Shown in pieces: positions 3,661 to 54,563 of a DNA stretch of 64,000 nt (the stretch's first letter is position 1; each line of letters opens with the position of its first letter). The DNA comes from Candidatus Obscuribacterales bacterium (GTDB lineage Bacteria; Cyanobacteriota; Vampirovibrionia; Obscuribacterales; Obscuribacteraceae): positions 640,001-704,000 of the forward strand of contig CBDDIJ010000003.1 of assembly GCA_965228855.1 (NCBI GenBank). Reading direction: 5' to 3'. Made by a program: the position numbers and the translations under genes. The notes below the pieces were generated by a model. It ran no database searches, was not told where the DNA came from, and worked only from the letters and a program-made list of their open reading frames with translations.

Positions 3661-3699
3661 TCGACCCGCAGGATGATTTTCAGTCATCCCTTCGGATGA
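3661..3699. promoter_or_regulatory. Tandem TCATCC-N4-GGATGA boxes
   Basis: TCGACC-CGCA-GGATGA (3661-3676) and perfect TCATCC-CTTC-GGATGA (3684-3699); starts 23 bp apart. Confidence 0.8.
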
Positions 3700-3752
3700 T
3701 TGATAGCGGAGAGTCTCGAGAGTTGCTATCGTTACTGGTCCTCTTCTGTGAA

Positions 3753-5462
3753 CTATTTAGCCTGACCCATTCGCGATTGCACGATTTGTTTGATGGACGC
3801 GAGGTCGCGTTTTCCATTTCCCAAAATAGGAATTTCCTCAACCCTTATGAAGTCGGTTTCCTGTGGTATCCAAATTCGAGGCATCGCAGACGCCCTCATC
3901 CTGCTTACAACTGTATGTGGTGGCATCTGATTCAAGTCTGCGTAAACCACGACGAGCCTTTCTCCTTGTTTTAAATCCTCTGCGGACGTCACGCAAACGT
4001 TGTGCTGTGCAGCTCCTGTTATTCGAACTATTTCTTCTTCAACTGCCAGATGTGAAACCATTTCGCCACCAATTTTAGAGAACTGGCTCAGTCTGCCGGT
4101 TATTGTAAGAAAACCTTCGTCGTCCAGGTAGCCGATGTCCCCCGTCTCAAACCATCCATCCTTGATGACTCGTTTAGTCTCTTCCGGTTTGCCAAGGTAT
4201 CCGAGCATGACTTGTGGTCCCTTCACCATGATCATGCCTTCCAAATTTCGTGCCAATGTCTCGCCGTTCTCTAAATTTAGGATTTTGATTTTGGTTCCCG
4301 GAATTGGCATTCCTACGGATCCATTTTTTCGGCCGGGCACGGTCCTGCCATTAGATATCCTTACGTCGTTTGAAACATTGCACGCTACCACTGGAGCGGT
4401 TTCAGCCAGACCGTAACCTTCCAGCGGGTGAATTCCCAGTGCATCCTCGAACTCCTGTCGCTGCTGCTCGTGCAGCTTTTCTCCGCCGATGATGCAGTTT
4501 TTCAACGATGCAAATTTTTCGACGGAGCACCTTCTAATGTAGGTACTCAACATCGTTGGCGTGCACACAAGAGTTGTGGCTTTGAACTTTTCGCAAAGGT
4601 CGGCAATTCTTCGGGCATCGAATGGGTTGTAGTGATAGACAACCATCTCTCCAAGGCATAGTGGCGTCCATAGTGTCATTGTTAGACCGAACGAATGAAA
4701 GTATGGAACTACTCCTAAGACGACCTCTCCATTTTTTATGTGTCCTCGCCAGCGAATTGCATGGATGTTAGACAATATGTTCTCATGAGAGAGAACCACT
4801 CCTTTTGGTGTTCCTGTACTGCCGGATGTGAAAATCACCGTCGCCGGCACGCTCAAACTGTTTTCCGTCTGAAGTTTGTCTGAATACAGGTGTCCCCACT
4901 TTGAGTCGAATCTCAAATGCTGCTGAGTGGAGAGACCTGGAAAAATTGTTCGCAAGAGTGACTCGGGAACTACCTCGGCTTCAGTCCATGCCTTGACGCG
5001 TTTAAACAATCCCAGATCGCTTGCCATATTGTCGAGATTGACCATGCGTTCAGGCTCGACCGTGAGCGTTATCCTCTTCAAAAACTTTTCCGACGAGATC
5101 ACCACGCTGATCTCGCATTCTTTTATACATGCATTGCAAATAGCCTGGGAAGTTGTGTAATTCAGGTTTGCCGAAACCTTGCCGAGCAGGGCTACGGCAA
5201 GGTTCGCAACGGCCGCAGCCGCTGATGGCGGTAAAAGAATGCCGATTGGAGCATCGTCTAGTGCTCGTTTTCCGAGTTCATTGGCGAGGGCGACAGCGGC
5301 TAAAAGCAATCCACGGTAGGTTAGTCTTGTCCCTAGAGAGTCTACGACCGCTGTGGCGTCAGGTGTTTGTCGCACTTGATGCAGGAATGCGTGAGGCAAG
5401 GAAAACCAGGACTCCGGTAAGGGAGGAAGTTCATTGTTGATATCGTTTTTCAATCCAAGCAT
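3753..5462 (-). CDS. AMP-binding acyl-ACP/acyl-CoA synthetase (Aas C-terminal-domain-like)
   Basis: FTSGSTGTPKG, EGYGLAE, TGD, GRLSQFSKIGGE and GK motifs. Confidence 0.88.
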   Translation of the reverse strand: MLGLKNDINNELPPLPESWFSLPHAFLHQVRQTPDATAVVDSLGTRLTYRGLLLAAVALANELGKRALDDAPIGILLPPSAAAAVANLAVALLGKVSANLNYTTSQAICNACIKECEISVVISSEKFLKRITLTVEPERMVNLDNMASDLGLFKRVKAWTEAEVVPESLLRTIFPGLSTQQHLRFDSKWGHLYSDKLQTENSLSVPATVIFTSGSTGTPKGVVLSHENILSNIHAIRWRGHIKNGEVVLGVVPYFHSFGLTMTLWTPLCLGEMVVYHYNPFDARRIADLCEKFKATTLVCTPTMLSTYIRRCSVEKFASLKNCIIGGEKLHEQQRQEFEDALGIHPLEGYGLAETAPVVACNVSNDVRISNGRTVPGRKNGSVGMPIPGTKIKILNLENGETLARNLEGMIMVKGPQVMLGYLGKPEETKRVIKDGWFETGDIGYLDDEGFLTITGRLSQFSKIGGEMVSHLAVEEEIVRITGAAQHNVCVTSAEDLKQGERLVVVYADLNQMPPHTVVSRMRASAMPRIWIPQETDFIRVEEIPILGNGKRDLASIKQIVQSRMGQAK

Positions 5463-5812
5463 CGCACTGTACCTGAGGTCTGCGAACGGTCTACTATTTT
5501 CAGGTTACTGCCAGAAAGGTCATAAACACATCCATCGAAAGATGCATTCCGGGTTCGGTGTAGTTGCAATTTCTGGTACTGGAGCTCATTGCCGCGATGA
5601 AAAACACCATATTCGGTGCCACTGGCTTTGAATATGGTGCCTTTCCCCTGGTCTCTCTCAAAGTTGTGCGTATTTATTCGCTGCTTTCATTATGGCAAAG
5701 TCTATCGCGCCGTGAATCATCCTAAATGCGTATTTCGGCAATTAGTCGAATTTTGAGATAATGCAATCCGGGCATACTTATATTGGATATTGGCCCTGCG
5801 GAGCTCCCAATT

Positions 5813-6562
5813 ATGAAATTCAACCTCGTACGACCCCTGAAGCCTATCGCCGTGAGTGCTGCCGTGCTTGCGCTTTTTGTTCTTGCTGATGACAGATCTG
5901 CTGCAAATGCGCCGAGCAATGACGCCGAGAAACTGATGGACAAGCAAGGATGTCTCCATTGCCATTATCTGCGAGGAAGAGGCGGTTTCATCGGACCACC
6001 GCTGGAGGGAATTCGCAAATTCAGGACAGAGGACGACATTGTGGCGGTTTTGACGCAGAGCCGACATCTGCCGGAATCATATCCCAAGGGCATCGTCGAC
6101 TCTACTGACTTCATGAAGCATGTTCATTTAAGCAAGGATGACGCGAAAACAGTAGCATCTTACCTTCTTTCGATTCCGGACGAGGATGCCTTTGAGGTAA
6201 AGGGTCATGGTGAGGACGAACCGGATGCGATTCCACAAGGATTTAACTTCAAGCCAAAGGCACCCTCGGAGTCGTCGCGCAAAGGGATGGCGGTTTATAA
6301 GGAAGCGGGTTGCGTAGCCTGCCACTCCATCGCTGGTTTTGGCGGATGGCGTGGTCCGTCTCTTGATGCAGTCGGCGCAAGATTGAATAAAACTGCGATA
6401 GAAAACCGAATTAGCCGCGGAGCTACGGTATTTTTCGAGGGGAAAGAATACAAGCCAAGCGAGTATTCGATGCCCCCCGCAGAGCTGGCACCTGAGCAGA
6501 TTAGCGACATCACCGAGTTCCTGTTGACCCTACCACAAAAAGCAGCCAAAGAAGAAAATTAG
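5813..6562 (+). CDS. Exported dihaem cytochrome c
   Basis: N-terminal hydrophobic signal; CLHCH and CVACH haem motifs. Confidence 0.85.
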   Translation: MKFNLVRPLKPIAVSAAVLALFVLADDRSAANAPSNDAEKLMDKQGCLHCHYLRGRGGFIGPPLEGIRKFRTEDDIVAVLTQSRHLPESYPKGIVDSTDFMKHVHLSKDDAKTVASYLLSIPDEDAFEVKGHGEDEPDAIPQGFNFKPKAPSESSRKGMAVYKEAGCVACHSIAGFGGWRGPSLDAVGARLNKTAIENRISRGATVFFEGKEYKPSEYSMPPAELAPEQISDITEFLLTLPQKAAKEEN

Positions 6563-6597
6563 GCTTGCCACCGGATATGGTATCGGCTCCGGAAGTG

Positions 6598-8472: not shown

Positions 8473-8665
8473 TGGTCCGACCTCAGAGTTACATTCCTCT
8501 TATTGTCGCGTGGGACCGAGAACTACGCATCAGCCTGACAGTCCATGTGCAGTCAGTCTTTGGGTGGATTGCTCCTCTATTACTACCAGGCACGCTACGC
8601 ATGAGGATGGAAGCATTATTTCGTCATATAAGGGATCATATGCTTATTGACGGAAAGGACACGAG

Positions 8666-12757: not shown

Positions 12758-12796
12758 TCAGCTAAAATACTGAAACTCGATTGGCCGAACGATTGA
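12758..12796. promoter_or_regulatory. Degenerate box pair serving a divergent promoter
   Basis: TCAGCT-AAAA-TACTGA (12758) and TTGGCC-GAAC-GATTGA (12781), 23 bp apart; CAGAAT 22 nt away on the minus strand and TAGAAT 21 nt away on the plus strand. Confidence 0.5.
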
Positions 12797-14684: not shown

Positions 14685-14728
14685 TCATCCCAAGGGACGA
14701 TGAAACGCGTCTGCGCGTTGGCTATCAT
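14685..14728 (+). promoter_or_regulatory. Box plus -10 element
   Basis: TCATCC-CAAG-GGACGA, 22-nt spacer, TATCAT. Confidence 0.75.
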
Positions 14729-16586: not shown

Positions 16587-16630
16587 TCATCCGAGAGGAT
16601 GATGCCTCAATGTCAGTTTTTCAATACTCT
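16587..16630 (+). promoter_or_regulatory. Perfect box plus -10 element
   Basis: TCATCC-GAGA-GGATGA, 22-nt spacer, TACTCT. Confidence 0.8.
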
Positions 16631-17329: not shown

Positions 17330-17345
17330 TCGTCCACGAGGATGA
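17330..17345. promoter_or_regulatory. TCATCC-N4-GGATGA box
   Basis: TCGTCC-ACGA-GGATGA (1 mismatch); no -10-like hexamer at 22 nt in either direction. Confidence 0.65.
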
Positions 17346-19761: not shown

Positions 19762-21390
19762 TTAAGCCATCTCTACATTATTGAGAGTGAACGAAAACGT
19801 GCTTCCCTTGCCGACTTCGCTATCGCACCAGAGTTTGCCTCCATGTGATTCGATGATCTTGCTACAGAGATAAAGCCCCAGACCCGTACTCGCGTAGTAT
19901 CGACCTCCGGATGATGCCTGCCAGAATCTCTGAAATAATTTAGGTTTGTCCGCATCTGAGATGCCCTTGCCTGTGTCCGTTACGGAAACTGTTGTCATTT
20001 GTTCGTCCTGAGCTAAATCTATACTGATTGAGCCTTTCGATTGCGTGTATTTGAGCGAGTTGTCGATAAGGTTTTGCATTACTCTGCGGATTTCGTCTAT
20101 GTCACAGATAACCGGAATGTTGCTTTCCGAAGATGTGAACGTCAGGTTAATCTGTTTCTGTTTCGCCAGAGGGGATAGCTCGGCCACTAACGTTTCGATA
20201 GAAGCAGGGAGGTCTGTCGGTAGCATGGTCAGCTGTTTCACACCGCTGTCGTATTTATAAACATCAAGCAAGGTGAGCACCATCTGGTACATAGCGTTGT
20301 TGCTCTGAAGAATAGTTTCAATAATGCTTCTCTGAGAATCTTGAATTGGACCGAAGTCACCTTCCATCAGAAGCTTCAGAGCCCGGTTCGCGGCCAGGAT
20401 CGGCGTTTTCAGATCATGCGTGAGGGTCGCAACGAAGTCTTCGCGTTGCTGTTGTAAGCGAACACTATCAGTTACCATCGTAAAGGTTGCCACCAGCGCC
20501 GATACCACATCATTCCTCTCCTTGATGGGCCAGATTGCCCAGTCGAAAAACGATTCATGATCGGAATTGAAAAATGTCAATTTAGCGGCTGATGCTCGTT
20601 TTGCCACTCCAAAATTGAGGGCTTCTTCCAGGTCCGAACGCGGCAGGTCTTCGCACAATTCAAATATGGATCGCCCAATAATCTGCTCGTCAGAGTCAAT
20701 AAAATTGAGAAACTCTGAATTTGCCTCTAAGCACTTGAAGTCTGGCGAAAGTCTGACAATGCCGATGGGTGCGTTTTCCACGATGCTCTTGCTGACGGTT
20801 CGTTCAGTCTCCAACCTCGAGATCATGTCCTTGTGTTCTCGGATCGCCTGAATTTTGGCGGTGTTATAGGTATCGATCGCTAAGCCCATATCAAAGAATA
20901 TAAGTTTGGTAAGCGAGTCGACTAGCCGATTTGAGAGTTCAGGATCATCTTTGAATTCCTCCACAATGAGTGTGCGCAGGTACTTGAGTGCTCGGTAGTA
21001 CGCCCCTAAGTACCAGCGTGTGTCCAGACCAATTCGATAGTGTGTCTTCCCTACAATCAGGCGGTTGTCAACGTACTCACGATCGTACTTGCCGCACGTC
21101 AGTTTCAGAAAATATTGGCGCTGTCCTGCCTTGGCTCGGTTTAAGATTTCTTCATTCGGAAAGAAACTAGCGGTGTCCTCGTGAGCCAGAAAGTGGTCGT
21201 AAAGGAAGTCCATGAGCCCGTCTACATTGCGAGCGACAAGCTGATCGAGAAGAGCTATGTTGGCCTCATCATCAGGCCCCAGTCCTAGCCACACTTTTCG
21301 GTTTTCGATCTCCTCATCAGACATCTCCAGGTGAATGTCAGGAATGGCTGGGTAATTATAGTCAGAGAATCTCGTAGTCGGCTCTGCCAT
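19762..21390 (-). CDS. Globin-coupled (protoglobin) PAS histidine kinase
   Basis: Globin sensor domain (FLYDHF...YVDNRLIVGKTHYRIGLDTRWYLGAY), PAS (ENAPIG), H-box THDLKTP, and N/G1/F/G2 boxes. Confidence 0.92.
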   Translation of the reverse strand: MAEPTTRFSDYNYPAIPDIHLEMSDEEIENRKVWLGLGPDDEANIALLDQLVARNVDGLMDFLYDHFLAHEDTASFFPNEEILNRAKAGQRQYFLKLTCGKYDREYVDNRLIVGKTHYRIGLDTRWYLGAYYRALKYLRTLIVEEFKDDPELSNRLVDSLTKLIFFDMGLAIDTYNTAKIQAIREHKDMISRLETERTVSKSIVENAPIGIVRLSPDFKCLEANSEFLNFIDSDEQIIGRSIFELCEDLPRSDLEEALNFGVAKRASAAKLTFFNSDHESFFDWAIWPIKERNDVVSALVATFTMVTDSVRLQQQREDFVATLTHDLKTPILAANRALKLLMEGDFGPIQDSQRSIIETILQSNNAMYQMVLTLLDVYKYDSGVKQLTMLPTDLPASIETLVAELSPLAKQKQINLTFTSSESNIPVICDIDEIRRVMQNLIDNSLKYTQSKGSISIDLAQDEQMTTVSVTDTGKGISDADKPKLFQRFWQASSGGRYYASTGLGLYLCSKIIESHGGKLWCDSEVGKGSTFSFTLNNVEMA

Positions 21391-21525: not shown

Positions 21526-22293
21526 ATGCAAGGCGAAGTTTTCATGGGCGAATCTCCTGGAAGTAATCAAATCAATGTTCTCCTGGTCGAAGACCATCAG
21601 CTCACCCGAATTGGACTGAAAACTGTGCTCGAGCGAACAGATGATATCAAGGTGATCGGCGAAGCCGAGAACGGCGAGGAAGCAATTCGGAAAGTCGGTG
21701 AGTTGAAACCTGATGTTGTCCTAATGGACGTGGGAATGCCGATAATGGACGGAATTGAGGCTGTCAATAACATTCAGCAACAGTATCAGAATGTAAACAC
21801 GATTATGCTGACATCTCATGATAACGAGCAGGATATCTTGGCTTCATTGTCGGCCGGTGCCAGTGGATACTGCCTGAAAGATGTTGATCCGCATCGTTTA
21901 TATAGTGCCATCAGGGCAGTGAACGGGGGAGATATCTGGCTGGACTCGTCTATAGCAAGCCGGGTAATGAAAATCCAGCAAGCTCGAATGATGAAAGCCG
22001 AAACAGGTCACAGTGAGCATGCCAGAGGTGAGACTGCCGTTCAGCATGCTACCGCTGGTGGTGCGGGTGTCAAAAATCAGCCACAGCTGCCACCCCTTCC
22101 GGACGCGCTTTCTCCCAGAGAGATGGAAGTACTCTCTCTACTCGTGGAGGGATTGTCGAACCAGGAAATCGCGGACAAGCTGATCATCTCGTTGGCAACC
22201 GCGAAAACGCACGTTCGAAACATATTGAATAAGCTTGCTGTCGATGATAGAACGCAAGCAGCTGTGCAAGCGATGCGCCGCGGTCTGGTTTAG
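21526..22293 (+). CDS. NarL/LuxR-family response regulator
   Basis: VEDH, VLMDVGMP, receiver Lys, and HTH LSPREMEVL...TAKTHVRNILNKL. Confidence 0.95.
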   Translation: MQGEVFMGESPGSNQINVLLVEDHQLTRIGLKTVLERTDDIKVIGEAENGEEAIRKVGELKPDVVLMDVGMPIMDGIEAVNNIQQQYQNVNTIMLTSHDNEQDILASLSAGASGYCLKDVDPHRLYSAIRAVNGGDIWLDSSIASRVMKIQQARMMKAETGHSEHARGETAVQHATAGGAGVKNQPQLPPLPDALSPREMEVLSLLVEGLSNQEIADKLIISLATAKTHVRNILNKLAVDDRTQAAVQAMRRGLV

Positions 22294-22325: not shown

Positions 22326-24743
22326 TTACTTAGATGGAACCGGAATTCGGCTGTCTTGTGCTTCTTCTCTGGCGATTAACAGGATCGTTTTGATAACGGT
22401 ATCCTCATTTAGTGAAATGCTGTCTATCTTTTGTTTCACTAAAAATCTGGTGAACTCCGGATAGTCGCTGGGCGCCTGTCCGCAAATACCGATTTTGCGC
22501 CCGCGCTTTTGTGCACCAGCGATTGCCATTTCAATCGCTCTGGTCACAGCAGGATTTCGTTCATCAAAAAGTTCGGCCAGACCTTCGTTGTCTCGATCGA
22601 CTCCCAGAATCAATTGAGTCAGATCGTTTGAACCGATTGAAAAGCCGTCAAATATTTCCGCAAATTCGTCGATTGCCAGGACATTTGATGGCAATTCGCA
22701 CATCACGTAGATTTCTAAACCATTAGCGCCTTGTTCCAAACCGTTTTTTGAAAGTTCGCGAATGACCTTTTTGCCCTCGGCAACTGTGCGGCAGAATGGA
22801 ACCATGAGTTTCACATTGGTCAGACCCATTTGCTCGCGCACCTGTTTCAGAGCTTTGCATTCCAGGGCGAACCCGTCTTTATAGTCGGGACTGTAATAAC
22901 GCGATGCGCCCCTGAAGCCAATCATCGGGTTGTCTTCGCTAGTTTCAAACTGTCGACCGCCGAGTAGATTGGCGTACTCGTTCGTCTTAAAATCAGAGAG
23001 TCGCACTATCACCGGTCTCGGATAAAATGCTGCGGCAATTGTCGAAATTCCTTCGGCGAGCTTCTGAACGAAATAGTCTGTTTTTGAAGAATAATGTTTT
23101 GTCAGCTCGACTATTTGTTCGCGAGCGTGTTCGTCGGTGAGTTTGTCGAAGCGCGTAAGCGCCAGTGGATGAACTTTAACTTCATTCGCGATTATGAATT
23201 CTTCCCGAGCTAAGCCGACTCCAGCCACCGGTAGTTTCGCCAGATTGAATGCTTGGTCTGGATTGCCCACGTTAACCATAACTTGGGTCGCGGTCGACGG
23301 GATATTTTCTAAATCCAAAATTTGTTTTTGAAAAGAAAGCTTGCCATCGTATACGATACCGGTATCGCCTTCTGCGCAGCTGACGGTGATCGCTTGACCC
23401 TGTTCTAAAACATCGGTGGCACGCTGGGTTCCTACGACGCAAGGCACACCGATTTCACGGCTGACGATGGCCGCGTGGCAAGTTCTTCCGCCTCGATTGG
23501 TGACAATCGCCGCTGCCCGTTTCATAATCGGTTCCCAATCCGGGTCAGTCATGTCGGCGACTAAGACATCTCCGTCCTTGAAGTCGACGAGCTCATGCAT
23601 TGAGTGGATCACGCGAACGCAGCCAGCGCCGATCTTCTCTCCAATTGATCTACCGGATAGAATGGCTTTGCCTTTATTTTCCAGTCTGTAAGACTCAATT
23701 GTTCGTCTGTTTGAACTGGAGTATACGGTTTCAGGACGGGCTTGAACTATATAAAGTTTGCCATCGTCACCGTCTTTCGCCCACTCGATATCCATCGCTG
23801 TCGAACGACCGAGTCTTTTTGAATAATACTTTTCGATCTGAACCGCCCATTCTGACAGTTTCAGAACATCTTCGTCGCTGATACTAAACCGCTCCTGACG
23901 CTCGGGAGCGACATCTATGTTTTTCGTGGTGCGAGATCCGTGTCCGGAGTAAATCATTTGCAGTCTTTTGGTACCGACTTTTCGACGCAAAATTGGTTTA
24001 AAACCCTGTTCGAGTGTGGGTTTAAAAACTATGAATTCATCCGGATCGACGCGGCCGGCGACAACATTTTCACCAAGTCCGTAAGCCGACGTAATGAGAA
24101 CGACGTCGCGAAAACCACTTTCCGTATCGAGTGTGAATATGACGCCTGCTGCGCCACGGTCTGACCTGACCATCTTCTGCACCGCGATTGCCAGCTTGAC
24201 GGACATGTGGTCGAAACCTTTGTCTAATCTGTATGAGATCGCTCTCTCTGTGAATAAGGATGCGAAGCAGTTTAAACATGCATTTAGCAGTTCAGCTTCG
24301 CCGCGTATGTTGAGAAAACTCTCTTGCTGACCGGCAAAGGAGGCATCCGGCAAGTCTTCTGCGGTCGCGCTCGAACGCACCGCGACGTCCGTAGCTTCGC
24401 CATACTCTTTCGAAAGTTGTTGATACGCTGCCACTATATCTTTGGCGAGCGCATCAGGAATTCCCGCTCCCTTAATCAGCGATCTCGCTTCTAAGGCCTT
24501 CTTATTGAGATCGTCAAGATCGTTTTTGTTCACCGAACCGAGCAACTGTACGAGCTTCTGGCGGATACCGCCCTCGTCCAGCAGCAGCGAATACGCATCG
24601 GCGGTTATGCAGAAGCCATTTGGCACGGAAATTCCCGATGATGCCATTCCGCGAGTCATCTCGCCAAGGGAGGCGCTTTTCCCGCCCACGAGCGGAATGT
24701 CGTCTATTGACACCTGATTGAACCAGCGAATAAAATTCGACAT
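22326..24743 (-). CDS. ppsA: Phosphoenolpyruvate synthase
   Basis: VGGK, AVRSSATAEDL, GGRTCHAAI and FSIGSNDLTQ motifs. Confidence 0.97.
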   Translation of the reverse strand: MSNFIRWFNQVSIDDIPLVGGKSASLGEMTRGMASSGISVPNGFCITADAYSLLLDEGGIRQKLVQLLGSVNKNDLDDLNKKALEARSLIKGAGIPDALAKDIVAAYQQLSKEYGEATDVAVRSSATAEDLPDASFAGQQESFLNIRGEAELLNACLNCFASLFTERAISYRLDKGFDHMSVKLAIAVQKMVRSDRGAAGVIFTLDTESGFRDVVLITSAYGLGENVVAGRVDPDEFIVFKPTLEQGFKPILRRKVGTKRLQMIYSGHGSRTTKNIDVAPERQERFSISDEDVLKLSEWAVQIEKYYSKRLGRSTAMDIEWAKDGDDGKLYIVQARPETVYSSSNRRTIESYRLENKGKAILSGRSIGEKIGAGCVRVIHSMHELVDFKDGDVLVADMTDPDWEPIMKRAAAIVTNRGGRTCHAAIVSREIGVPCVVGTQRATDVLEQGQAITVSCAEGDTGIVYDGKLSFQKQILDLENIPSTATQVMVNVGNPDQAFNLAKLPVAGVGLAREEFIIANEVKVHPLALTRFDKLTDEHAREQIVELTKHYSSKTDYFVQKLAEGISTIAAAFYPRPVIVRLSDFKTNEYANLLGGRQFETSEDNPMIGFRGASRYYSPDYKDGFALECKALKQVREQMGLTNVKLMVPFCRTVAEGKKVIRELSKNGLEQGANGLEIYVMCELPSNVLAIDEFAEIFDGFSIGSNDLTQLILGVDRDNEGLAELFDERNPAVTRAIEMAIAGAQKRGRKIGICGQAPSDYPEFTRFLVKQKIDSISLNEDTVIKTILLIAREEAQDSRIPVPSK

Positions 24744-24773
24744 TTTTTCTCTCCCTTTGTTATCTTCTTCGTA

Positions 24774-26426
24774 CTATTTCGCGAGAATAGCCGCCAGATC
24801 CTTTGATGGTTCAGTCACGAGCTTCAGTTGATAGCCTTCCGACAGAGTCTTCAAGATAGTTGGTGTGACGAACGCTGGTGCATTCGGGCCGATGCGAATA
24901 TCTTTTATTCCTAAGTGAAGCAGTGAGAGTAGTACCGCCACGGCTTTCTGCTCAAACCAGGAAATGATGAGCGACAGCGGAAGGTCGTTTACCGAACAAC
25001 CAAATGCGTTTGCAAGGGCGGAAGCGATAACGACTGCAGAGTGTGCATCGTTACACTGACCCAGATCAAGCAAGCGAGGAATTCCACCGATGTCGCCAAA
25101 TTCGATATCGTTGAAGCGGTATTTGCCGCAGCCGAGGGTCAAAATGACGCAGTCTTCGGGTACTTGCTCTGCAACTTCGGTAAAATAATTTCGTGCGAAT
25201 TCGGCTCCATCACAGCCGCCAATTAAGAAGAAGTGTTTGATTTTTCCTTGCTTCACCGCTTCAATAACTTTATCGGCGACGCTCAACACTGCATGGTGTC
25301 CGAATCCGACCGTGATACTTTTCTCCGGCTGATCGTCAGGGAAGCCCGGCAATTCAAGCGCTTGTTCGATCAATCTAGAAAAGTCATACGCTGCGACTTT
25401 CGGTATGCCTTCCCACCCAACAACATCTATGGTGTACAGCCTGTTTTTGTAAGACTCGGCAGGTGGTTTCAAACAATTAGTCGTCATGACTATAGGACCC
25501 GGGAATAGCTCGAATTCTCTCACCTGATTTTGCCAGGCTGTTCCGTAATTTCCTCGCAGATGCGGGAACCGTTTGAGAACCGGGTATCCATGCGCCGGCA
25601 GCATTTCTCCGTGAGTGTAAACGTCAATGCCTTTATCTTCTGTTTGACGCAATAGCTCAAGCAGGCTTCTCATATCGTGTCCTGATACGAGGATGCATTT
25701 ACCCTTCTTATGGGTTGTGAGAACCTGCGTCGGTACTGGAGAGCCGAGTGTCTCCGTATGAGCCTGGTCCAGCAATTCCATGACCCGCAAATTCATTGCA
25801 CCTGTTTTCAAACAAAGATCCAACAAGCGCGATTCATCAGGTTCTTGCTCGGCCAGGCAGGCGAGAGACTCGTGCACAAAAGCGAAGACTTGTTCGTCAA
25901 CATAGCCGAGCATTGCGGCGTGATGCGCATAAGCCGCCATACCCTTGATTCCGTAAACTGCCATTTCACGTAGACCAGTGAGGTCCGGTCCCTGATCCCT
26001 GATGCTGCCGAGGATTGAAATTGTATTGGCGAAATCAAGCAACTCCTGCTTTGTCTTGGGCACAACCCAGACAGCTGGACCTGAAAATTCGCGAGGATTT
26101 ACACCTCTTGCCTTGCAAGCACACAGATACATTTCATGTGCGCGGTCGCGTAACTGACCAAGGTATTCGATATATTTGACGTGCTCATCCTCGTCGAAGT
26201 TGACGTTGGTGAGCGTCATGAATAGGGCTGCCAGTGTGGTCTCGTTAATACGTTCATCAGTGGTTCCCAGGAGCCTGGCTTCATGAGCGTATACGGAAAT
26301 TCCTTTGACAAGATAGATGATGACGTCTTGCAGATTCGCCGTTTCCGTTGTTTTTCCACAAACACCGAGGCTGGTGCACGCTACACACTGTGCCGTTTGC
26401 TCACACTGGTAACAGAACATACTCAT
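24774..26426 (-). CDS. hcp: Hybrid cluster protein (hydroxylamine/NO reductase)
   Basis: MFCYQCEQT...C...GVCGK, SGHD, THGEMLPAH, GGCDG, GQCND and SWFEQKAV motifs. Confidence 0.97.
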   Translation of the reverse strand: MSMFCYQCEQTAQCVACTSLGVCGKTTETANLQDVIIYLVKGISVYAHEARLLGTTDERINETTLAALFMTLTNVNFDEDEHVKYIEYLGQLRDRAHEMYLCACKARGVNPREFSGPAVWVVPKTKQELLDFANTISILGSIRDQGPDLTGLREMAVYGIKGMAAYAHHAAMLGYVDEQVFAFVHESLACLAEQEPDESRLLDLCLKTGAMNLRVMELLDQAHTETLGSPVPTQVLTTHKKGKCILVSGHDMRSLLELLRQTEDKGIDVYTHGEMLPAHGYPVLKRFPHLRGNYGTAWQNQVREFELFPGPIVMTTNCLKPPAESYKNRLYTIDVVGWEGIPKVAAYDFSRLIEQALELPGFPDDQPEKSITVGFGHHAVLSVADKVIEAVKQGKIKHFFLIGGCDGAEFARNYFTEVAEQVPEDCVILTLGCGKYRFNDIEFGDIGGIPRLLDLGQCNDAHSAVVIASALANAFGCSVNDLPLSLIISWFEQKAVAVLLSLLHLGIKDIRIGPNAPAFVTPTILKTLSEGYQLKLVTEPSKDLAAILAK

Positions 26427-26519
26427 TTATAAAACCTCGCAATAGCTCATTTTGTAATCGTCGCAAATCAGCCGCTCCTACGGAATTAGTCGAAAGGATG
26501 ATTCTTTGCCTGATGAGAC

Positions 26520-27440
26520 TCAGGCGATCAGATACAGACCGCTTTTTCTGAGTCTTTTGGATTTTGTCACTTCGGTCGTGCAATGCGTATGCATTGCAAC
26601 TCCTTCAGAGACGCTACCAAGCACGAGTTTCTCGAAGCTTTGTTTGCCATGTGAACCGAGCATGATCAGGTCTGCCGGCCACTCTGCTGCATATTCGAGA
26701 ATCCGCTCTTTCGGATCACCTAATAAAACCTGACCGTTCGCGACCTTTTGCTCGTACTTCGTGTTGATTATGTCTGCCACTGAGTTTATCCATTCTTGAT
26801 GTTTGCGAACGACTTCATTGAAGCTGTCCACGATGTTCTCAACGGCTAGGGTGTCGTCATCCAAAAACAGACCGGGCCCCAGGTTTGGTACAACGTGAAT
26901 ACAAGTGAATCTGGTGTTTTCAGCCCATGGAAAAGAGAGCACATGGTCCAATAAATGTTTCGAGTGTTCGGACTCTTCGAGTGCTATAAGAACGTTGTTA
27001 CGCGTCGTGTCAGAAGTCGGTTGCGGTGTAGCGCGTACGATTCGCACCGCACATGGTGCATGAAGAAGTAGGCCACGAGATACGCTGCCTAAGAAGAACC
27101 GTTTAACGCCGCTGCGTCCGTGTGATCCTACTACGAGTAAATCTGCAAGCCAATTTCTGCATAGTTTAAGAATTGCGTCTACGGCGAAGCCGTCGAGTAT
27201 ATCCGCGCTGATGTCAGCATCAGGATGTGCAGCAGCCAGTTCCGTCACCGCTTCCTGGACCAGCTCGTTCGCCTTTCGATATTCTCGCAGTTGTACGTCA
27301 GGTAAGGCTGTGAAGGGGTGCCACAGGTCTACTGCAGTCGCTACTTTAATTTCCGTGCCCACCGGACAGACCATTGACTTTAGCCCTCTAAGGGCTTCGC
27401 GCGAACAGGCAGAGCCATCGGTCGCAAATACAATTCTCAT
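26520..27440 (-). CDS. Tandem-domain universal stress protein
   Basis: Two USP domains, each with GSHG...LGSVS. Confidence 0.93.
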   Translation of the reverse strand: MRIVFATDGSACSREALRGLKSMVCPVGTEIKVATAVDLWHPFTALPDVQLREYRKANELVQEAVTELAAAHPDADISADILDGFAVDAILKLCRNWLADLLVVGSHGRSGVKRFFLGSVSRGLLLHAPCAVRIVRATPQPTSDTTRNNVLIALEESEHSKHLLDHVLSFPWAENTRFTCIHVVPNLGPGLFLDDDTLAVENIVDSFNEVVRKHQEWINSVADIINTKYEQKVANGQVLLGDPKERILEYAAEWPADLIMLGSHGKQSFEKLVLGSVSEGVAMHTHCTTEVTKSKRLRKSGLYLIA

Positions 27441-27583
27441 ACAAGACCCCTTTCACAATCCAGTGCATTCAGCTCGTGCGTCGTCGCGTTATTTCTTCCT
27501 GGGCGATCGTACATCTGGATATAGCATCGCAAAAGTACGAAGATGAGCGCATCATCCCAGCGACGTATTCGTGAGCTCAGGCG

Positions 27584-28924
27584 TTAAGTAATCCTTAGCG
27601 AGACCATGTGGGTCGCGCATGTGTTGCAAGGGTCGTATGCGCGAACAAGAGTCTCCAGATTTGCACGAAGATTGGTTGCAATTTCATCTGATTCTGACGG
27701 CAGTAATTGCGAAACCACTTCTTGAATGTCACGTTCTATTCTGTACGTGTTTTGTGCTGAGGGTGTGACCATATCAGCTTTCGACACTTTACCATTATCG
27801 TCAATCTCGTAGTAATGGTAAAGTGTTCCCCTTGGGCACTCGACTGTTCCACAGCCACTACCAGCAGTGGCGTCAAGTTTTACGCGTGTATGTTGGCGAG
27901 CGTCAAAGGTGTTCCAGACATCCGCAGTTCTTTCCAGTTCAGCTACGATACTGACGGCACGGTGAAACGCTTCCACAATTTCAATCGCCTGCGCCAAGTT
28001 ATTCCAGATCGTATTGTTATCGCCTTTTGACATGGCACTGGAGCCGTAGATACTCTTCGCCTCACCGGTCAGGAGGCTTCCAAAGAGAGCCAACCTCGCC
28101 ATTGATCCAACCATTATCGGTTGACCGTTGACGGATGATCGTTTCGCGTGACTATGCGACACCGCTTCTTCTTTAAGGTAGCTTTTGTACTCGTTGACGT
28201 CGCATTCGAAACCGCTGGTTGCGCGGATTTTTGTACCAAAGTATCCGTAGTGATCACTTTCGGGAATTAGAGCGAAAAAAATCGGTTCACTGGTTCTCCT
28301 TACACTGGGAGGGAACCGCATTAAAACCTCGCAGGTTCGAATTGTCAATTGCAGATTTTCCTGAAGGAGTGATTTGATCTGCAGAAGACTTTCGAGTTGC
28401 GGAAAGCTTGAGAAACCGCCGACATGCAAGTTTACGGGATGGAACGGGCGTCCTCCTATAGTGGTTTGAATTAAGGCTCCGATGTTCCGCAAGGAGGTCC
28501 ATGCTTTAAATTCTTCCGTATGTTCCGAAGCAAACTTATGGACGTTATCGAAACCAAGGAAATCGGGCAATGCAAGTGCATAGATGTGCGTAGCGTTCGA
28601 CTCAATGATCATACCGAGGTGCATTAACTCTCTAAGGAGAGAAACTGTTGCGCTCGGCGTAAAGCCTGCAATTCGCTCAACCGCTCTGATGGCGGCTATA
28701 ACGTGTCCGGTGGAGCAAATTGCACAGACCCTGGAAGTTATGTGCGGAATCTCGTCTTGATGATGCCCCACAATCAGTCGTTCGAAAAACCTTGTTCCTT
28801 CAAATACATCAAGTTTTACTTGAGTGACTTTGTCGCCTTCAATTTCGACATGCACTGCTGAGTGCCCTTCCACTCGGCATATCTCCGAAATCTCGATCTT
28901 TTTCCTGGATTCTTCGTCTGCCAT
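27584..28924 (-). CDS. hydA: Group 3b [NiFe]-hydrogenase large (alpha) subunit
   Basis: RVEGH, L1 SRVCAICSTGH, ECPRG, L2 AYDPCNTCATH, plus a short cleavable tail. Confidence 0.93.
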   Translation of the reverse strand: MADEESRKKIEISEICRVEGHSAVHVEIEGDKVTQVKLDVFEGTRFFERLIVGHHQDEIPHITSRVCAICSTGHVIAAIRAVERIAGFTPSATVSLLRELMHLGMIIESNATHIYALALPDFLGFDNVHKFASEHTEEFKAWTSLRNIGALIQTTIGGRPFHPVNLHVGGFSSFPQLESLLQIKSLLQENLQLTIRTCEVLMRFPPSVRRTSEPIFFALIPESDHYGYFGTKIRATSGFECDVNEYKSYLKEEAVSHSHAKRSSVNGQPIMVGSMARLALFGSLLTGEAKSIYGSSAMSKGDNNTIWNNLAQAIEIVEAFHRAVSIVAELERTADVWNTFDARQHTRVKLDATAGSGCGTVECPRGTLYHYYEIDDNGKVSKADMVTPSAQNTYRIERDIQEVVSQLLPSESDEIATNLRANLETLVRAYDPCNTCATHMVSLRIT

Positions 28925-28930
28925 CGTTCC

Positions 28931-30585: not shown

Positions 30586-31723
30586 GTTTATCACCATCTG
30601 CGGTATCGCACTGGCAGTCACCGCAGCTAGTACCGCAGCTAGTACCGCAGCTAGTACCGCAGCCTCCGGTTTGAGTCTTCTTCTTATCAGTTACCAATAT
30701 TGACGGTTTTCCTTGTAAGCGCAAGACTACATTCACAATATCGTCGATTCCTGCAGGACAAGATTCCGTGCACCTTCCGCATCCGACGCAGGTCGGCAGT
30801 CCATGCGGGTCCTCGAATCCATGCAGCTTGTGTCGATACCAGAATTTCAATCTGTCGACCGGTCCCGGCCGAAAGTTGGTATCACCGGCTACTTTAGCAA
30901 AACCGACAAACTGACAGCTGTCCCATTCTCGAACACGTTCGCCTCTATTTGCGTGAAGGCTCGCGACATCAACCATGTCGAAGCAATAGCAAGTTGGACA
31001 AACGGGAGTGCAATTACCACAACTCAAGCAGCGATTTCCTAAGTCATCCCATACCTGACTGTTCCACTCCATATCCATGATTGCCGGCAAATTTTCGGAT
31101 TCGAAGTGCGAACTAAAGGCTTTATCGCGCGTTGTCCAAAAGTCTTTGAAAGTTTGATCTTCTTGCGCTTCGGGGCGGGAGAAAAAGTCCGGCATAGATT
31201 CAATCAGGTTTAAACCATTCGCTGAATGTATTTGAACGAAATATTTGTCACCAATATCGGTTAAGAAAAGATCGTAGTCCGACGTCGGAGAATCGGTGCC
31301 CATGGATTTGCAGAAGCAGTGTTTGTCGGGCATACAAGAAAGACCTACCAACATGGTCGCCTGGCGTCTGGCGATGTAATGCGGGTCTGGCGGTGATGCG
31401 GTGTAGACTTTGTCCATTATCCCCAGACCTGCCAGATCGCAAGGATGAACTCCGAAGATGACTTGCTGTTGTGTCTCCGGTTTTACCTCGTGTATGCCAT
31501 TCTCATCATATGAGAGAATCGGCTCATGCTGCTGGAAGAAGAACTTCTTCGGTGGCAGAATTGTTCTCAGTGCTTCGAAAGCAATCTGAGAGGGTGATTC
31601 GATCGATTTAAACGAGAACGACTTTTCTGATACACGAACGGGCGCAAAAACCTTTCCAAAGCTTTTTAACAAACAAAAGAACTGTTCAAATTGCTCTTTT
31701 TTGAAAGTAGCGGTCCGTTCCAT
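30578..31723 (-). CDS. hydB: Group 3b hydrogenase beta subunit (4Fe-4S dicluster)
   Basis: PPKKF, HPCD, CFC, CLSCGNCTPVCPTCYC and CVGCGRCTESCP motifs. Confidence 0.92.
   Translation of the reverse strand: MERTATFKKEQFEQFFCLLKSFGKVFAPVRVSEKSFSFKSIESPSQIAFEALRTILPPKKFFFQQHEPILSYDENGIHEVKPETQQQVIFGVHPCDLAGLGIMDKVYTASPPDPHYIARRQATMLVGLSCMPDKHCFCKSMGTDSPTSDYDLFLTDIGDKYFVQIHSANGLNLIESMPDFFSRPEAQEDQTFKDFWTTRDKAFSSHFESENLPAIMDMEWNSQVWDDLGNRCLSCGNCTPVCPTCYCFDMVDVASLHANRGERVREWDSCQFVGFAKVAGDTNFRPGPVDRLKFWYRHKLHGFEDPHGLPTCVGCGRCTESCPAGIDDIVNVVLRLQGKPSILVTDKKKTQTGGCGTSCGTSCGTSCGDCQCDTADGDKHA
30620..30663. repeat. 12-bp tandem repeat (ACCGCAGCTAGT x ~3.7)
   Basis: Directly visible; encodes (CGTS)3 in the beta-subunit tail. 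Confidence 0.95.
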
Positions 31724-31730
31724 CTTAACC

Positions 31731-32432
31731 TCAGTGGCTGTGAGAATGTGCCGTTGCTTCTGCTGCCTTTAAACTCATGGCGCATTTGTCGTTAAGCCAC
31801 GAGCAAAATCCTTCGATACCTTCACCAGATTTCGCACTTACTTTGAATAGTTCAGCTTTGCTGTTTAAACTTGAAATTGCTTTATGTAGGCGATCGAAAT
31901 CAAAATCCACCAGTTCCGCTAAATCCATTTTTGTTATCACAACCGCGTCGCAGTTGCGAAAAATGACCGGATATTTCAGTGGTTTGTCATCGCCCTCGGT
32001 AACGGATAGCAATACTATCCGGAGATGTTCGCCTAGTGGAAATTCCGCTGGGCAGACGAGGTTGCCGACGTTCTCTATAATGATGAGATCTCCAGCCGGT
32101 GATTTGTTCGAGTCTATTAGTCTGCTAATCATCTTTGCGTCAAGATGGCAGCTCCGACCAGTGCTGATCTGCACTGCGTTTATGCCTGCATCTCGAAGTC
32201 TCTGCGCGTCGATGTCCCCGACCATATCACCTTCAATGACACCGATTGATCTTTCCGATCTCAGTTCGTTCGCGAGTTTTGATATAAGAGTAGTTTTGCC
32301 AGCTCCCGGTGCGCTCATAAAATTAACAGCAAAGGCGCCTGCGTGTTCAAAGCTGTGCCGGTTGGCATGAGCGAGCTGATCGTTGTCTTCCAGAATGCGC
32401 TTTAGAAGATGTTCGTCTGTACTGTCGTGCAT
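31731..32432 (-). CDS. hypB: Hydrogenase nickel-incorporation GTPase HypB
   Basis: PGAGKTT, IEGD, CHLDA, ENVGNLVCPA and EGDDKPLKYP; start placed after a GGAGGAG RBS. Confidence 0.96.
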   Translation of the reverse strand: MHDSTDEHLLKRILEDNDQLAHANRHSFEHAGAFAVNFMSAPGAGKTTLISKLANELRSERSIGVIEGDMVGDIDAQRLRDAGINAVQISTGRSCHLDAKMISRLIDSNKSPAGDLIIIENVGNLVCPAEFPLGEHLRIVLLSVTEGDDKPLKYPVIFRNCDAVVITKMDLAELVDFDFDRLHKAISSLNSKAELFKVSAKSGEGIEGFCSWLNDKCAMSLKAAEATAHSHSH

Positions 32433-32460
32433 AGAATGCTCCTCCTGCCGACCCATTGAT

Positions 32461-32504
32461 AGAGTACCCGAAATTCCGCAAGTTCTAATCATCCGGTTGG
32501 GCTA
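32461..32504 (-). promoter_or_regulatory. Hydrogenase operon promoter (box plus -10)
   Basis: TCATCC-GGTT-GGGCTA at 32489; TACTCT on the minus strand 22 nt downstream. Confidence 0.65.
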
Positions 32505-32817: not shown

Positions 32818-32856
32818 TCATGCCTGATGATGATTCTTGCTCCTCCGTTGGGATGA
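32818..32856. promoter_or_regulatory. Tandem boxes
   Basis: TCATGC-CTGA-TGATGA (32818) and TCCTCC-GTTG-GGATGA (32841), 23 bp apart. Confidence 0.75.
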
Positions 32857-32919
32857 ATTCGAAGCAAATGTTTTAAATTTCGGGACGCCGCGTCTTGCTC
32901 TGCAATTCAGCTCAGCACT

Positions 32920-32935
32920 TCATCCGTGCGGCTGA
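32920..32935 (+). promoter_or_regulatory. Box upstream of a USP pair
   Basis: TCATCC-GTGC-GGCTGA (1 mismatch). Confidence 0.75.
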
Positions 32936-35732: not shown

Positions 35733-35776
35733 TCATACAAATGGATGAGGCGCTGATGCGTTAAATCACTCACAAT
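35733..35776 (+). promoter_or_regulatory. Box plus -10 element
   Basis: TCATAC-AAAT-GGATGA, 22-nt spacer, CACAAT. Confidence 0.75.
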
Positions 35777-38305: not shown

Positions 38306-38506
38306 TTGTGAACCCTTCTTACTTTGTGATTATGACGGCGTTGTAGACTTCACGAATCGGCTGGAAGGATGAGTTCATTAAGCTACTGTTTCTGACTATC
38401 CATCTAACGATCATCCTTAAGAGTGGTTCGGTTTTATTCCTAAATTGCTTGAATTAGATTATGGCGCTCGGTAGTGTCTCAACCTCGAAAACGGGAAGGA
38501 GCGGAG

Positions 38507-44260: not shown

Positions 44261-44377
44261 TCTTGCTGTCCTTGTGGATGACTTCTATATTGACGCATGC
44301 GATATGCCTTCGCCTCGACCGTTCGGCGTAACACGCAGAAATCGCCCCATTGCTGTGTTGATTGGAAAAATGTTGGT

Positions 44378-44421
44378 TCATCCCATGGGACGATGCTTTT
44401 ATTATGTTCGAGTGGGAAACT
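44378..44421 (+). promoter_or_regulatory. Box plus -10 element
   Basis: TCATCC-CATG-GGACGA, 22-nt spacer, GAAACT. Confidence 0.75.
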
Positions 44422-46367: not shown

Positions 46368-46573
46368 GGACTTCAAGAGTCACCATTCTCTCGTCGCTTA
46401 TTCTTACACTCAATCTAAAGGATTACGAGGCACTTCCAAAAATCCTCCTTGATGCTGATGTTAAGTCCTTGAATCGGCGCGACAATGTGCGATAGCTATT
46501 TCAAAGCAGCTTGAGAACGGTTCGCAGATGAACCCGAACTCACGGAGCTGGTATCACATTAGAGGTTGAGGAG

Positions 46574-47041
46574 ATGCAAACCGCGAAAGCCGAAAAAGAC
46601 TGTTCAAAAGAGAACTTCAATTTCTTCGGTCGCTGGCGTAACCAGCATGGTTCGGAAATGAATTTGACCAAGTTCGAAGACGGCAAAATTTCCGGAACTT
46701 TCAGAACTGGTGTGGGAGCACATGAGCCTGGAGAGGTGCATTTGCTAACAGGTTTCGTGGCTGGCGGGCTCATTTCCTTTACAGTTAATTTTGGAAAGTA
46801 CGATACGCTAACGTCATGGACTGGGCAGCACAATCAAATCGACGGTCACGATCATATTGAAACAATGTGGCACCTGGCGCGTACTATACCGGAAAATGGT
46901 CGGCACGACCGATTGTGGGCTGGCGTCTGGACCGGCTCCGATACATTTAACCGCGTAGGTGAGGACAGTCAGCTCGATCACGATCTCTCCGATCGACCAA
47001 TGTTCATTCCGTCATATCCGTTGAAATTCTCAAAAAAATAG
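46574..47041 (+). CDS. Avidin/streptavidin-family protein
   Basis: GRWRNQHGS, GTFRT, FTVNF, TSWTGQ, TMWHL and GSDTF follow the avidin beta-barrel pattern. Confidence 0.85.
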   Translation: MQTAKAEKDCSKENFNFFGRWRNQHGSEMNLTKFEDGKISGTFRTGVGAHEPGEVHLLTGFVAGGLISFTVNFGKYDTLTSWTGQHNQIDGHDHIETMWHLARTIPENGRHDRLWAGVWTGSDTFNRVGEDSQLDHDLSDRPMFIPSYPLKFSKK

Positions 47042-48858: not shown

Positions 48859-48974
48859 AATTTGTCCGGTATGAGGAGAGTGTATGCCATCAATCATCCC
48901 TTAGATAGATGTCGACTCTTAATTAGCCAGTCAGAATAAACCGATAGCTACACCTTCTTTCAGGAGATCGAAAG

Positions 48975-51445: not shown

Positions 51446-51484
51446 TCTGCTGAAAGGATGATCTATCGACTTCTCAGAGGATGA
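51446..51484. promoter_or_regulatory. Tandem degenerate boxes
   Basis: TCTGCT-GAAA-GGATGA and ACTTCT-CAGA-GGATGA, 23 bp apart. Confidence 0.6.
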
Positions 51485-51660
51485 GTCTGCGATGACCGTG
51501 ATAGAGGGCTCGAACGTTTTCTTATTCAGAGGTGCTGGTGACCCGAAAGTGAGTACTTGCTGATCTGGATGCAAAGCATAAATTCATTCTTTCGACTGAG
51601 TAAATTTCATTCTCAGAGTCAATGTGGACGTTCTAAAAATTTTACAAAATAGAAATACAA

Positions 51661-52344: not shown

Positions 52345-52349
52345 CCGGC

Positions 52350-53600: not shown

Positions 53601-53720
53601 TGTGCTTTTGGTGCATAGGCGGAATCGTTTATGACGACTCAAGCGCACTTTGGACTCGCTCTCTCAGGTGCTGAAGCTGAGTGAACTGACTTTGATTTCT
53701 TTCGTTCAAAGGGCACGTAA

Positions 53721-54389
53721 TCAATTTCTGTCTGATTCCAGATATGGTTCGGTGATGACTTCGCCGACGTGAAAATGGAGAGGTTCATGTTCTTGAAAGT
53801 GTCTTTTGACTTCATGGTGTCTTATGATTGCACCGTCTCCGAGGGCACGTGCAATTCTGATATCTCGCTCGTTTCCGAATATTAACTCAGCAAAATCATT
53901 GCCACCAAAAGTGGTGTGTTCCGAAACGGCGAACTCGAGAACAAGGTGAGCTTTCAATTTCAGGTTGATATACCAGTGTCGGTGAATTGTTTCTTTGATA
54001 CGTTGACAGATTTTGCCGGCAAGGTTTTCGTCTGCATCCAGGAGGAGAACGGCAAACCTGGTTTTCCCAGATCTGACCACTATGTTTCCGTTTTCCAATG
54101 CCTTTGCGATGACAAGGTCCAGGTTCGCGCATGCTTTTTTAAGCTGTCTCTTGCTGACGTTTTCGGTTCCGGTCGCAACCTCTACTAAAATGATTGAGAT
54201 CGGCAGTTTAAATATCGAGTTTGGATATTTACTCAGAGCTTCCAGAAACACGTCCAGAACCTGTTCCGGCCCAGAGCAATAGACTCGGCCAGTCTGGTCA
54301 AGGCGCGTAAGTTTGACGTGGTTGATTACGTTGTCGTGTATTTGACTGGCCAAGCTTTCCTGGCGATGTTGTAGCGGATTCTGTTCCAT
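53721..54389 (-). CDS. Degenerate GGDEF-like domain protein
   Basis: DQTG, RSGKTRFAVLL at the GGDEF position, and a terminal ARALG. Confidence 0.55.
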   Translation of the reverse strand: MEQNPLQHRQESLASQIHDNVINHVKLTRLDQTGRVYCSGPEQVLDVFLEALSKYPNSIFKLPISIILVEVATGTENVSKRQLKKACANLDLVIAKALENGNIVVRSGKTRFAVLLLDADENLAGKICQRIKETIHRHWYINLKLKAHLVLEFAVSEHTTFGGNDFAELIFGNERDIRIARALGDGAIIRHHEVKRHFQEHEPLHFHVGEVITEPYLESDRN

Positions 54390-54464
54390 AATTAAGTCCC
54401 ACGCTGTTATGAAGGTATTCAGTGGTACCTGCTTCTATCTTGATGCGGAGCGTGAGTCTTCACA

Positions 54465-54563
54465 TCAACCAACCTACTGAAGAGCCCTCACCGAAGTGGG
54501 TGATTTCCGTGGTTGTTGTGAGGTCAACCTTTAGGTTGATTGAAAGATCATCCTCTTTAGTCA
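54465..54563. promoter_or_regulatory. Four boxes in a divergent promoter
   Basis: TCAACC-AACC-TACTGA (54465), TCACCG-AAGT-GGGTGA (54488), palindromic TCAACC-TTTA-GGTTGA (54524) and a TCATCC half-site (54548). The outer sites are each 22 nt from CAAGAT(-) and GAAGAT(+). Confidence 0.65.

Follow-up and report, generated by a model that had tools for sequence, protein, structure and literature searches.

What does a short palindrome that recurs between the genes of a long stretch of bacterial DNA do there, and which protein would read it? The stretch in question, hereafter the window, comprises 64,000 nucleotides (positions 640,001 to 704,000 of contig CBDDIJ010000003.1, assembly GCA_965228855.1) of a Candidatus Obscuribacterales bacterium, and the palindrome, TCATCC-N4-GGATGA, had been taken in a sequence-only reading as the mark of a regulon of about 50 kb in which one transcription factor controls nearly every operon. 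The host belongs to the Vampirovibrionia, the non-photosynthetic sister group of the oxygenic cyanobacteria. Their use of oxygen has been discussed from enzyme inventories and respiratory complexes (PMC6349859). Our analyses revealed that the palindrome is real and indicate an operator, and we give a probability of roughly 70% to the reading, predicted from sequence comparison, that this box is the class II activator site of a LiaR/NarL-type regulator resident in the same gene cluster, a regulator that would switch on its promoters once the globin-coupled kinase encoded next to it detects falling oxygen.

Evaluating the palindrome, we recovered both perfect sites that had been noticed (3684 and 16587) and all six with one mismatch (14685, 17330, 32841, 32920, 35733 and 44378), and the window contains no others with at most one mismatch. 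All eight are intergenic under genes re-called with our own hexamer-based caller, with intergenic DNA making up 12% of the window; site 44378 lies within the longest open reading frame call, yet upstream of the re-called start. Allowing up to two mismatches gave 18 sites versus a mean of 2.9 and a maximum of 8 across 100 shuffles. Sites deviating by no more than one base number 46 in the whole genome (8.2 Mb), 8 in the window and 38 elsewhere (0.3 per 64 kb), such that the window is about 27 times denser, and 8 of the 11 perfect sites with a 4-base spacer were intergenic, whereas each of ten other spacers gave 0-4 perfect sites and none of these was intergenic. The idea that the motif marks this island alone did not survive, as 9 of the 11 perfect sites are outside the window.

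The cluster that holds the sites runs from position 1 to 55043 of the window and about 6 kb further leftward (hypC, hypD, hypE, usp and two more boxes), for a total of about 60 kb. Scoring this cluster with a matrix built from 14 sites outside the window returned 15 intergenic and 2 coding sites of at least 10 bits. A second matrix, built from all 22 strong sites with the window's own 8 included, returned 20 sites of at least 8 bits in the cluster's intergenic DNA versus 0.6 expected, and 46 of at least 0 bits versus 9. A site of at least 8 bits was present in 7 of 11 divergent gaps in the cluster versus 42 of 1140 elsewhere, and the wider consensus reads aATCATCCnwwnGGATGATt. As had been observed, the region to the right with a Gly-rich protein and arginine genes yielded no intergenic site, and the two matches with two mismatches found there are coding and at chance level.

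These boxes were next to a promoter-like feature at a fixed distance. Across 54 oriented strong sites, a hexamer resembling a -10 element (TAnnnT) peaked 30 bases from the box centre, which leaves 22-23 bp between box and hexamer. Counting both orientations, it occurred at this offset in 7 of 94 in the host's own genome (mean of 0.78 at other offsets), in 5 of 32 in a more distant family (f8, introduced below; 1.3 elsewhere), and in relatives 17 times at offset 30 plus 8 times at offset 31 among 178 orientations (2.4 elsewhere). The peak was weaker outside the cluster (9 versus 2.9, with a maximum of 8 elsewhere, for 22 sites of at least 14 bits) and faded below 10 bits. If the hexamer is a -10 element, an offset of 30-31 places the box centre near -42.5. 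Activators centred near -41.5 or -42.5, abutting the -35 position, define class II sites as established for CRP and FNR, and the predicted position of the box is that of an activator site at class II sigma-70 promoters. Tandem boxes may add to this arrangement, since 7 of 17 pair distances in the cluster were 22-24 bp, which suggests a second dimer upstream, while the same excess was only slight in relatives and most strong sites lacked a neighbour at that distance.

The fixed offset also bears on 22 weaker sites that had been listed alongside the strong ones, and which held up as a set and not one by one. Their mismatches number 2 in 4 sites, 3 in 8, 4 in 4 and 5 in 6; several (12758, 16479, 8530, 44315 and 54465) are at chance level by score alone, and that at 36434 lies within the last bases of a coding sequence. 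However, with the offset learnt from the strong sites and the weak sites scored afterwards with a looser hexamer (NAnnnT), 15 of 44 orientations matched versus a mean of 3.25 across 51 other offsets (p ~3e-7), the highest count at any of these being 8. For all 30 claimed sites, 21 of 60 orientations carried the looser hexamer, and 19 of those 21 pointed to a gene on the same strand, a count in which either direction scores in divergent gaps.

To which protein, then, might the box belong? Within the cluster lies a NarL/LiaR-type response regulator (21526..22293, plus strand; Pfam Response_reg and GerE) with a receiver Asp68 and a GerE helix-turn-helix, whose best match in the PDB is the LiaR/VraR-type entry 5hev (E 6e-47), and whose recognition helix, ISLATAKTHVRNILNKL, is identical in 21 of 23 extracted orthologues (its own copy included). 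Divergent from it is a protoglobin-PAS-HisKA-HATPase sensor kinase (19762..21390, minus strand), the only protoglobin in the genome. Tyr64 and His117 of this kinase align with Tyr45 and His99 of AfGcHK, which we take to be the distal Tyr and proximal His of the protoglobin pocket, and these two residues together with His325 and Asn440 were invariant in 120 of 120 homologues. Named homologues of the kinase mostly bear the label Candidatus Obscuribacterales, which places the genome in the Vampirovibrionia (Melainabacteria). One homologue (P0102, 739 amino acids) has a universal stress protein domain fused to it. We consider that the regulator at 21526-22293 likely reads the box, a view that draws on its kinship with LiaR/VraR, whose relative CesR has a site of the same frame (see below), and on the comparisons across genomes that follow.

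Of 36 genomes of the host's family, 29 yielded a protoglobin, as did all 3 of the sister family f2 and 1 of 21 others of the class, and the regulator adjoins the kinase at 26 of the 29 loci compared in relatives. In some 666 kb surrounding the pair in 23 other genomes (near-identical G007 left out), 71 boxes of at least 12 bits were found versus a mean of 5.5 and a maximum of 15 for permuted matrices, and universal stress protein, hydrogenase and ppsA genes recurred there in reshuffled order, such that the motif is kept around the same genes. Counts of a strict pattern in 78 family genomes, which are descriptive as kin are not independent, were 322 versus 126 controls in the 69 genomes with a regulator orthologue and 30 versus 11 in the 9 without, with 24 of those 30 hits coming from G002 and two very fragmented assemblies and the other six genomes having 6 versus 7. 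In G002 the regulator orthologue aligns in two frames (L039) amid intact boxes, which suggests a frameshift or an assembly error. G009, G013 and G036, three genomes of the family that yielded no regulator and no globin kinase, had no box near their universal stress protein genes.

Outside the order, family f8 carries a regulator of the same clade (tree support 0.855 and 0.957, related regulators of other classes also falling inside the clade in the latter tree). This sister regulator shares an operon with a kinase, and 6 of 8 genomes have boxes close to that operon; loci centred on the regulator held 9 boxes versus 1.3, a count that includes two loci chosen knowing that a box was near. A box lies directly upstream of the kinase or kinase-regulator operon in G089, G084, G098 and G079, and others precede narG (G084 and G045), hsp20 and CBS genes; a weak box also lies ahead of the gene for a NorB-type reductase. 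The f8 kinase has its DHp core in common with the globin kinase and has no globin; in 6 of 8 aligned f8 kinases it has instead a PAS domain that matches FixL and DosP and in which the heme histidine is aligned. The other two (L085:6693-7835 and L086:7140-8285) have a Cys-rich N-terminus in which C-x4-C-x2-C precedes a PAS of divergent sequence, and may be iron-sulfur sensors; the PAS of these two returned no informative structural match. Both kinds of kinase-regulator pair, Cys-rich and heme-PAS, occur in G084. The boxes before the kinase operon and narG, together with the heme PAS, provide the best evidence for oxygen as the signal and for regulators of this clade as readers of the box.

Other classes of the phylum have related regulators (helix TVGTVKTHVRNIL) that group with the clade in a weakly supported tree. 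A box excess was absent from 4 of 5 genomes with this helix, and the three hits in G274 trace to a coding site and to a sequence that is repeated. Loci L272-L279 from these classes encode the related regulator, which is conserved and in three cases lies beside a SpoIIE-type phosphatase and an anti-sigma factor, and no box was found nearby. In G289 three high-scoring matches, two of which are coding, fall among carotenoid genes close to the regulator.

Putting these observations together, the kinase would bind heme and sense an oxygen drop, phosphate would pass from its His325 to Asp68 of the regulator, and a regulator dimer centred near -42.5 would contact RNA polymerase in class II activation, perhaps with a second dimer one repeat further upstream, so that the cluster's promoters would be induced at low oxygen. 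The output would include survival functions (universal stress proteins, Hsp20, HPF and FtsH), redox balancing (group 3b hydrogenase, Hcp and Adh) and better use of scarce oxygen (heme synthesis, a Rieske/cytochrome b/bd operon and oxygen-requiring enzymes). That one factor acts on most operons of the cluster appears likely from the divergent gaps, the fixed hexamer offset and the conservation, with the amendments that its boxes reach beyond the island and that some cluster genes are free of them.

Several observations weigh against this reading. The gap between kinase and regulator has no box in the host's own genome (best score -4.2 bits), none was found upstream of arsC-acr3 within the cluster, and about nine further NarL-type regulators are encoded in the genome, K-T-H or K-S-H occurring in the helix of several. 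In 10 of the 69 regulator-bearing genomes the strict pattern was rarer than its control. Boxes are present in G215 (5 boxes; 89% complete, with its cluster reaching the contig end) and G028 (3 boxes; 87% complete) although no regulator orthologue was found in either. Family f2 keeps both globin kinase and regulator and showed 0 boxes in 94 kb of kinase and universal stress protein loci; its regulator helix differs (STVKSH), a change that may have altered specificity, and a substitute motif was looked for there and none found. In four f8 genomes a two-mismatch pattern was not above control genome-wide. Of most weight is that AfGcHK and NmpU are both described as active when oxygen is present (PMC11841059), such that direct activation at low oxygen would require the reverse polarity or else a kinase acting as phosphatase in oxygen.

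This last point makes the best-surviving alternative, though we regard it as improbable, one in which regulator and box are the same and the signal differs, with the kinase on when oxygen (or nitric oxide or carbon monoxide) is bound, or with an unseen relay inverting the signal as in Myxococcus, where NmpRSTU does so through a second kinase (PMC11841059). Besides the activity of AfGcHK and NmpU in oxygen, it is favoured by the match of Tyr64 and His117 to the AfGcHK pocket and by the fact that nitric oxide or oxidative stress would suit Hcp, universal stress proteins and Hsp20 as well. Yet no second kinase lies beside the pair in the window, and in f8 the box precedes narG and the kinase has a PAS of the type of FixL, which is on when deoxygenated. 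Gene content also resembles that of the low-oxygen-induced regulons lxa (PMC3721108) and DosR (PMC10034137) and argues for low oxygen as the signal.

Less probable again is a reading of the box by a different NarL-family paralogue, or by several through cross-talk, with the pair a mere resident of the cluster. With about ten NarL-type regulators in the genome there is no shortage of candidates, and the box-free promoter of the pair, the boxes of G215 and G028 and the boxless pair of f2 would all fit. On the other hand, the small f8 genomes have only 1-2 matches to the regulator's DNA-binding domain (E<=1e-12), and in four f8 genomes a box lies right before the kinase-regulator operon; the helix is nearly invariant family-wide; and G013 carries a paralogue with the helix ETVKTHMRHIM and has no box near its universal stress protein genes.

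A CRP/FNR-family factor reading the inverse arrangement, GATGA-N6-TCATC, is very improbable. Tandem sites at 22-24 bp do create that arrangement, many Hcp genes are under CRP/FNR-type control, and the lxa locus is under control of this type (PMC3721108), but GGATGA-N6-TCATCC occurs 0 times in the genome versus 11 for TCATCC-N4-GGATGA, most strong sites lack the required neighbour, and the only CRP-type gene to pass the cut-off is far from the cluster. Weakest of all is an RNA hairpin (a terminator or repeat element) in place of an operator, which several Acinetobacter genomes among the matches listed, with the string in A-tract/T-tract hairpins, and one perfect site in a convergent gap just left of the window might suggest, but which is opposed by TTTT beside only 5 of 32 strong intergenic sites, by the placement of 2 of those 32 in convergent and 14 in divergent gaps, by several mismatches that break pairing on both strands, and by the -10-like hexamer at its fixed distance. 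The matches listed came mostly from unrelated taxa, and the Acinetobacter copies (L111, L141, L170, L179, L180 and L183), between A and T tracts, resemble intrinsic terminators and are unrelated to the regulon.

How does the system compare with known ones? The sequence-only reading had separated the motif from the FNR/CRP and DosR boxes, which was borne out, as the box differs from TGA-N6-TCA of FNR and lxa and from AGGGCCGATCGGCCCT of OsdR/DevR. It had also not recognised the motif as described, and this stands in part: in a search of listings and the openings of abstracts we found no published account of the motif or of a Vampirovibrionia oxygen regulon, though subscription papers, supplements and regulon databases may contain the motif, yet a close look-alike exists in the lactococcal CesR/LiaR box, TCAGHCTnnAGDCTGA (PMC4447274). 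The lxa locus of Burkholderia cenocepacia, with some 50 genes in about 50 kb, has a single motif that recurs at 17 intergenic points and at four outside loci, and both it and the Obscuribacterales cluster encode universal stress proteins, a metal-dependent RNase, an ATP-dependent Zn protease and a cation ATPase (PMC3721108). The same source reports measured low-oxygen induction of lxa, whereas for the Obscuribacterales cluster such induction is predicted, and the lxa motif is Anr/Fnr-like with a CRP-family regulator in the locus, whereas the cluster has TCA-N10-TGA with a NarL-type regulator and a globin kinase, and no CRP-family gene was found in it.

DosS-type kinases combine GAF and HisKA_3 domains, in contrast to the Protoglobin, PAS, HisKA and HATPase_c of the kinase studied here, whose genome also has no autoregulatory box. 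DosR/DevR and OsdKR are alike in having a NarL-family regulator, a 16-bp palindrome, many sites around their own locus and targets that include universal stress proteins, a heat-shock protein and nitrate reductase (PMC10034137, PMC5069765), and the cluster is similarly rich in universal stress proteins, Hsp20 and HPF. Their box, given as the OsdR consensus, differs from TCATCCnwwnGGATGA of the Obscuribacterales genome. LiaFSR systems are recognised by a membrane kinase LiaS, LiaF and envelope-stress targets; the Obscuribacterales regulator has neither LiaF nor a LiaS-type kinase beside it, and its targets are not cell-envelope genes. Its closest relative among solved structures is nevertheless of the LiaR/VraR type (5hev), and the CesR box has the same 16-bp TCA-N10-TGA frame, differing mainly at position 4; no conserved A-tract precedes the Obscuribacterales box. 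As with AfGcHK (PDB 5ohe) and NmpRSTU, a protoglobin-coupled kinase would head an oxygen-related regulon with universal stress protein and CBS genes among its members (PMC11841059). As in globin-coupled kinases generally, a protoglobin with proximal His and distal Tyr is fused to a kinase core, and heme binding is predicted; in NmpU the heme ligand is His96 (PMC11841059). NmpRSTU differs in its output, an NtrC-type sigma-54 activator with the site GCGCA-N5-TGCGC behind an inverting hybrid-kinase relay, as that paper describes it, whereas the Obscuribacterales pair has a single NarL-type regulator, sigma-70-type promoters and a kinase with an added PAS. The system is therefore DosR- or lxa-like in working and a member of neither, and it is not NmpRSTU and not LiaFSR.

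A broader proposal, which we offer tentatively and with more doubt than belief, is that one regulator-box module forms a common oxygen switch of respiring Vampirovibrionia, kept across orders while one kinase core received different sensors (a globin in Obscuribacterales; in f8 a FixL-type heme PAS or a Cys-rich PAS), and that in the globin version absence of oxygen turns the kinase on to drive a dormancy regulon directly, opposite to AfGcHK and NmpU. If the favoured reading is true, this would be the first mapped oxygen-response circuit for Vampirovibrionia. It puts forward candidates for sensor, regulator and operator as well as promoter positions, all of which can be tested with expressed proteins, and it gives several genes of unknown function a likely oxygen-response assignment. 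Different sensors on one kinase core also offer a natural comparison, including whether the globin kinase works with inverted polarity.

Box by box from the left, tandem sites 23 bp apart at 3661 (2 mismatches) and 3684 (perfect; together 3661..3699) lie upstream of minus-strand usp-usp-hyp-hypA-hypF. The weak tandem 8530/8553 (8530..8568; 0.2 and 7.4 bits) separates divergent ftsH and cation P-type ATPase genes with -10-like hexamers at offset 30 in both directions, and the tandem 12758/12781 (12758..12796; chance-level scores) separates divergent cation-efflux and cytochrome c genes with such hexamers at offsets 30 and 29. Single boxes follow upstream of gpmA (14685..14700, 1 mismatch, TATCAT 22 bp behind), in a divergent gap of two hypothetical genes (16587..16602, perfect, TACTCT 22 bp behind) and upstream of a hypothetical gene of 144 amino acids (17330..17345, 1 mismatch). 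Beyond the regulator, the minus-strand region 22326..32492 contains predicted targets (hypB, a four-subunit group 3b-type NiFe hydrogenase, usp, hcp and ppsA; Pfam and NCBIfam), with hydrogenase subunits scoring below archaeal equivalog cut-offs, and has boxes upstream of hcp-ppsA (26486..26501, 10.6 bits) and of the hypB and hydrogenase operon (32489..32504, 9.0 bits, TACTCT at offset 30 on the minus strand). The divergent gap of hypB and usp (32818..32935) adds boxes at 32818 and 32841, 23 bp apart, and at 32920.

Further right, boxes lie between divergent beta-CASP nuclease and GNAT genes (35733..35748, 1 mismatch), between divergent TPR and phosphoribosyltransferase genes (38357 and 38411, 38357..38426, 9-10 bits), between divergent mgtA and usp (weak 44315 and strong 44378, 44315..44393), upstream of an avidin-family gene (46443..46458, 10.3 bits), upstream of usp-usp (48894..48909, 10.5 bits), between divergent hsp20 and hydrolase genes (tandem 51446/51469, 51446..51484) and, as a group of four (54465/54488 and 54524/54548, 54465..54563), between a hypothetical gene and the HPF/S30AE gene. 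The box of the avidin-family gene (46574-47041) has its own -10-like hexamer, and the G215 cluster also has an avidin gene. Besides the hydrogenase, hcp and ppsA, the cluster holds genes for 10 universal stress proteins (in the window), hsp20, HPF, ftsH, two P-type ATPases, hypA, hypB, hypF, gpmA, three c-type cytochromes, the beta-CASP nuclease and adh (Pfam, NCBIfam). The convergent-gap site left of the window (L004:13190-13205, 4.8 kb away) is a perfect box just past hypE and may be a relic of rearrangement, as in relatives a box there precedes the next gene.

Outside the cluster, two boxes precede hemA, and others lie before a PaaA-like gene, the gene of a fatty acid desaturase, a SOUL heme-binding gene, HPPD together with a homogentisate dioxygenase-like gene, and an operon encoding Rieske, cytochrome b and one bd-oxidase-like subunit; the remaining sites lie before genes of unknown function, or are coding and may be chance.

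We also considered whether the cluster is a recent horizontal island and rejected this. Its GC content (48.6-49.4%) is like that of the flanks (49-51%) and its genes recur, in shuffled order, around the kinase-regulator pair family-wide, so that it looks like a resident cluster. To its right, a Gly-rich protein of 1650 amino acids (55188-60158) without a Pfam or NCBIfam match at the thresholds used is encoded in a stretch of 60% GC. Minus-strand arginine genes form two blocks, argG-argH-argF on the right (60280-63981) and argR-argC-argJ-argB on the left (L004:3934-7890), with about 70 kb between them holding an SNF2 helicase gene, the cluster and the Gly-rich protein, and the cluster may have moved into an arg operon.

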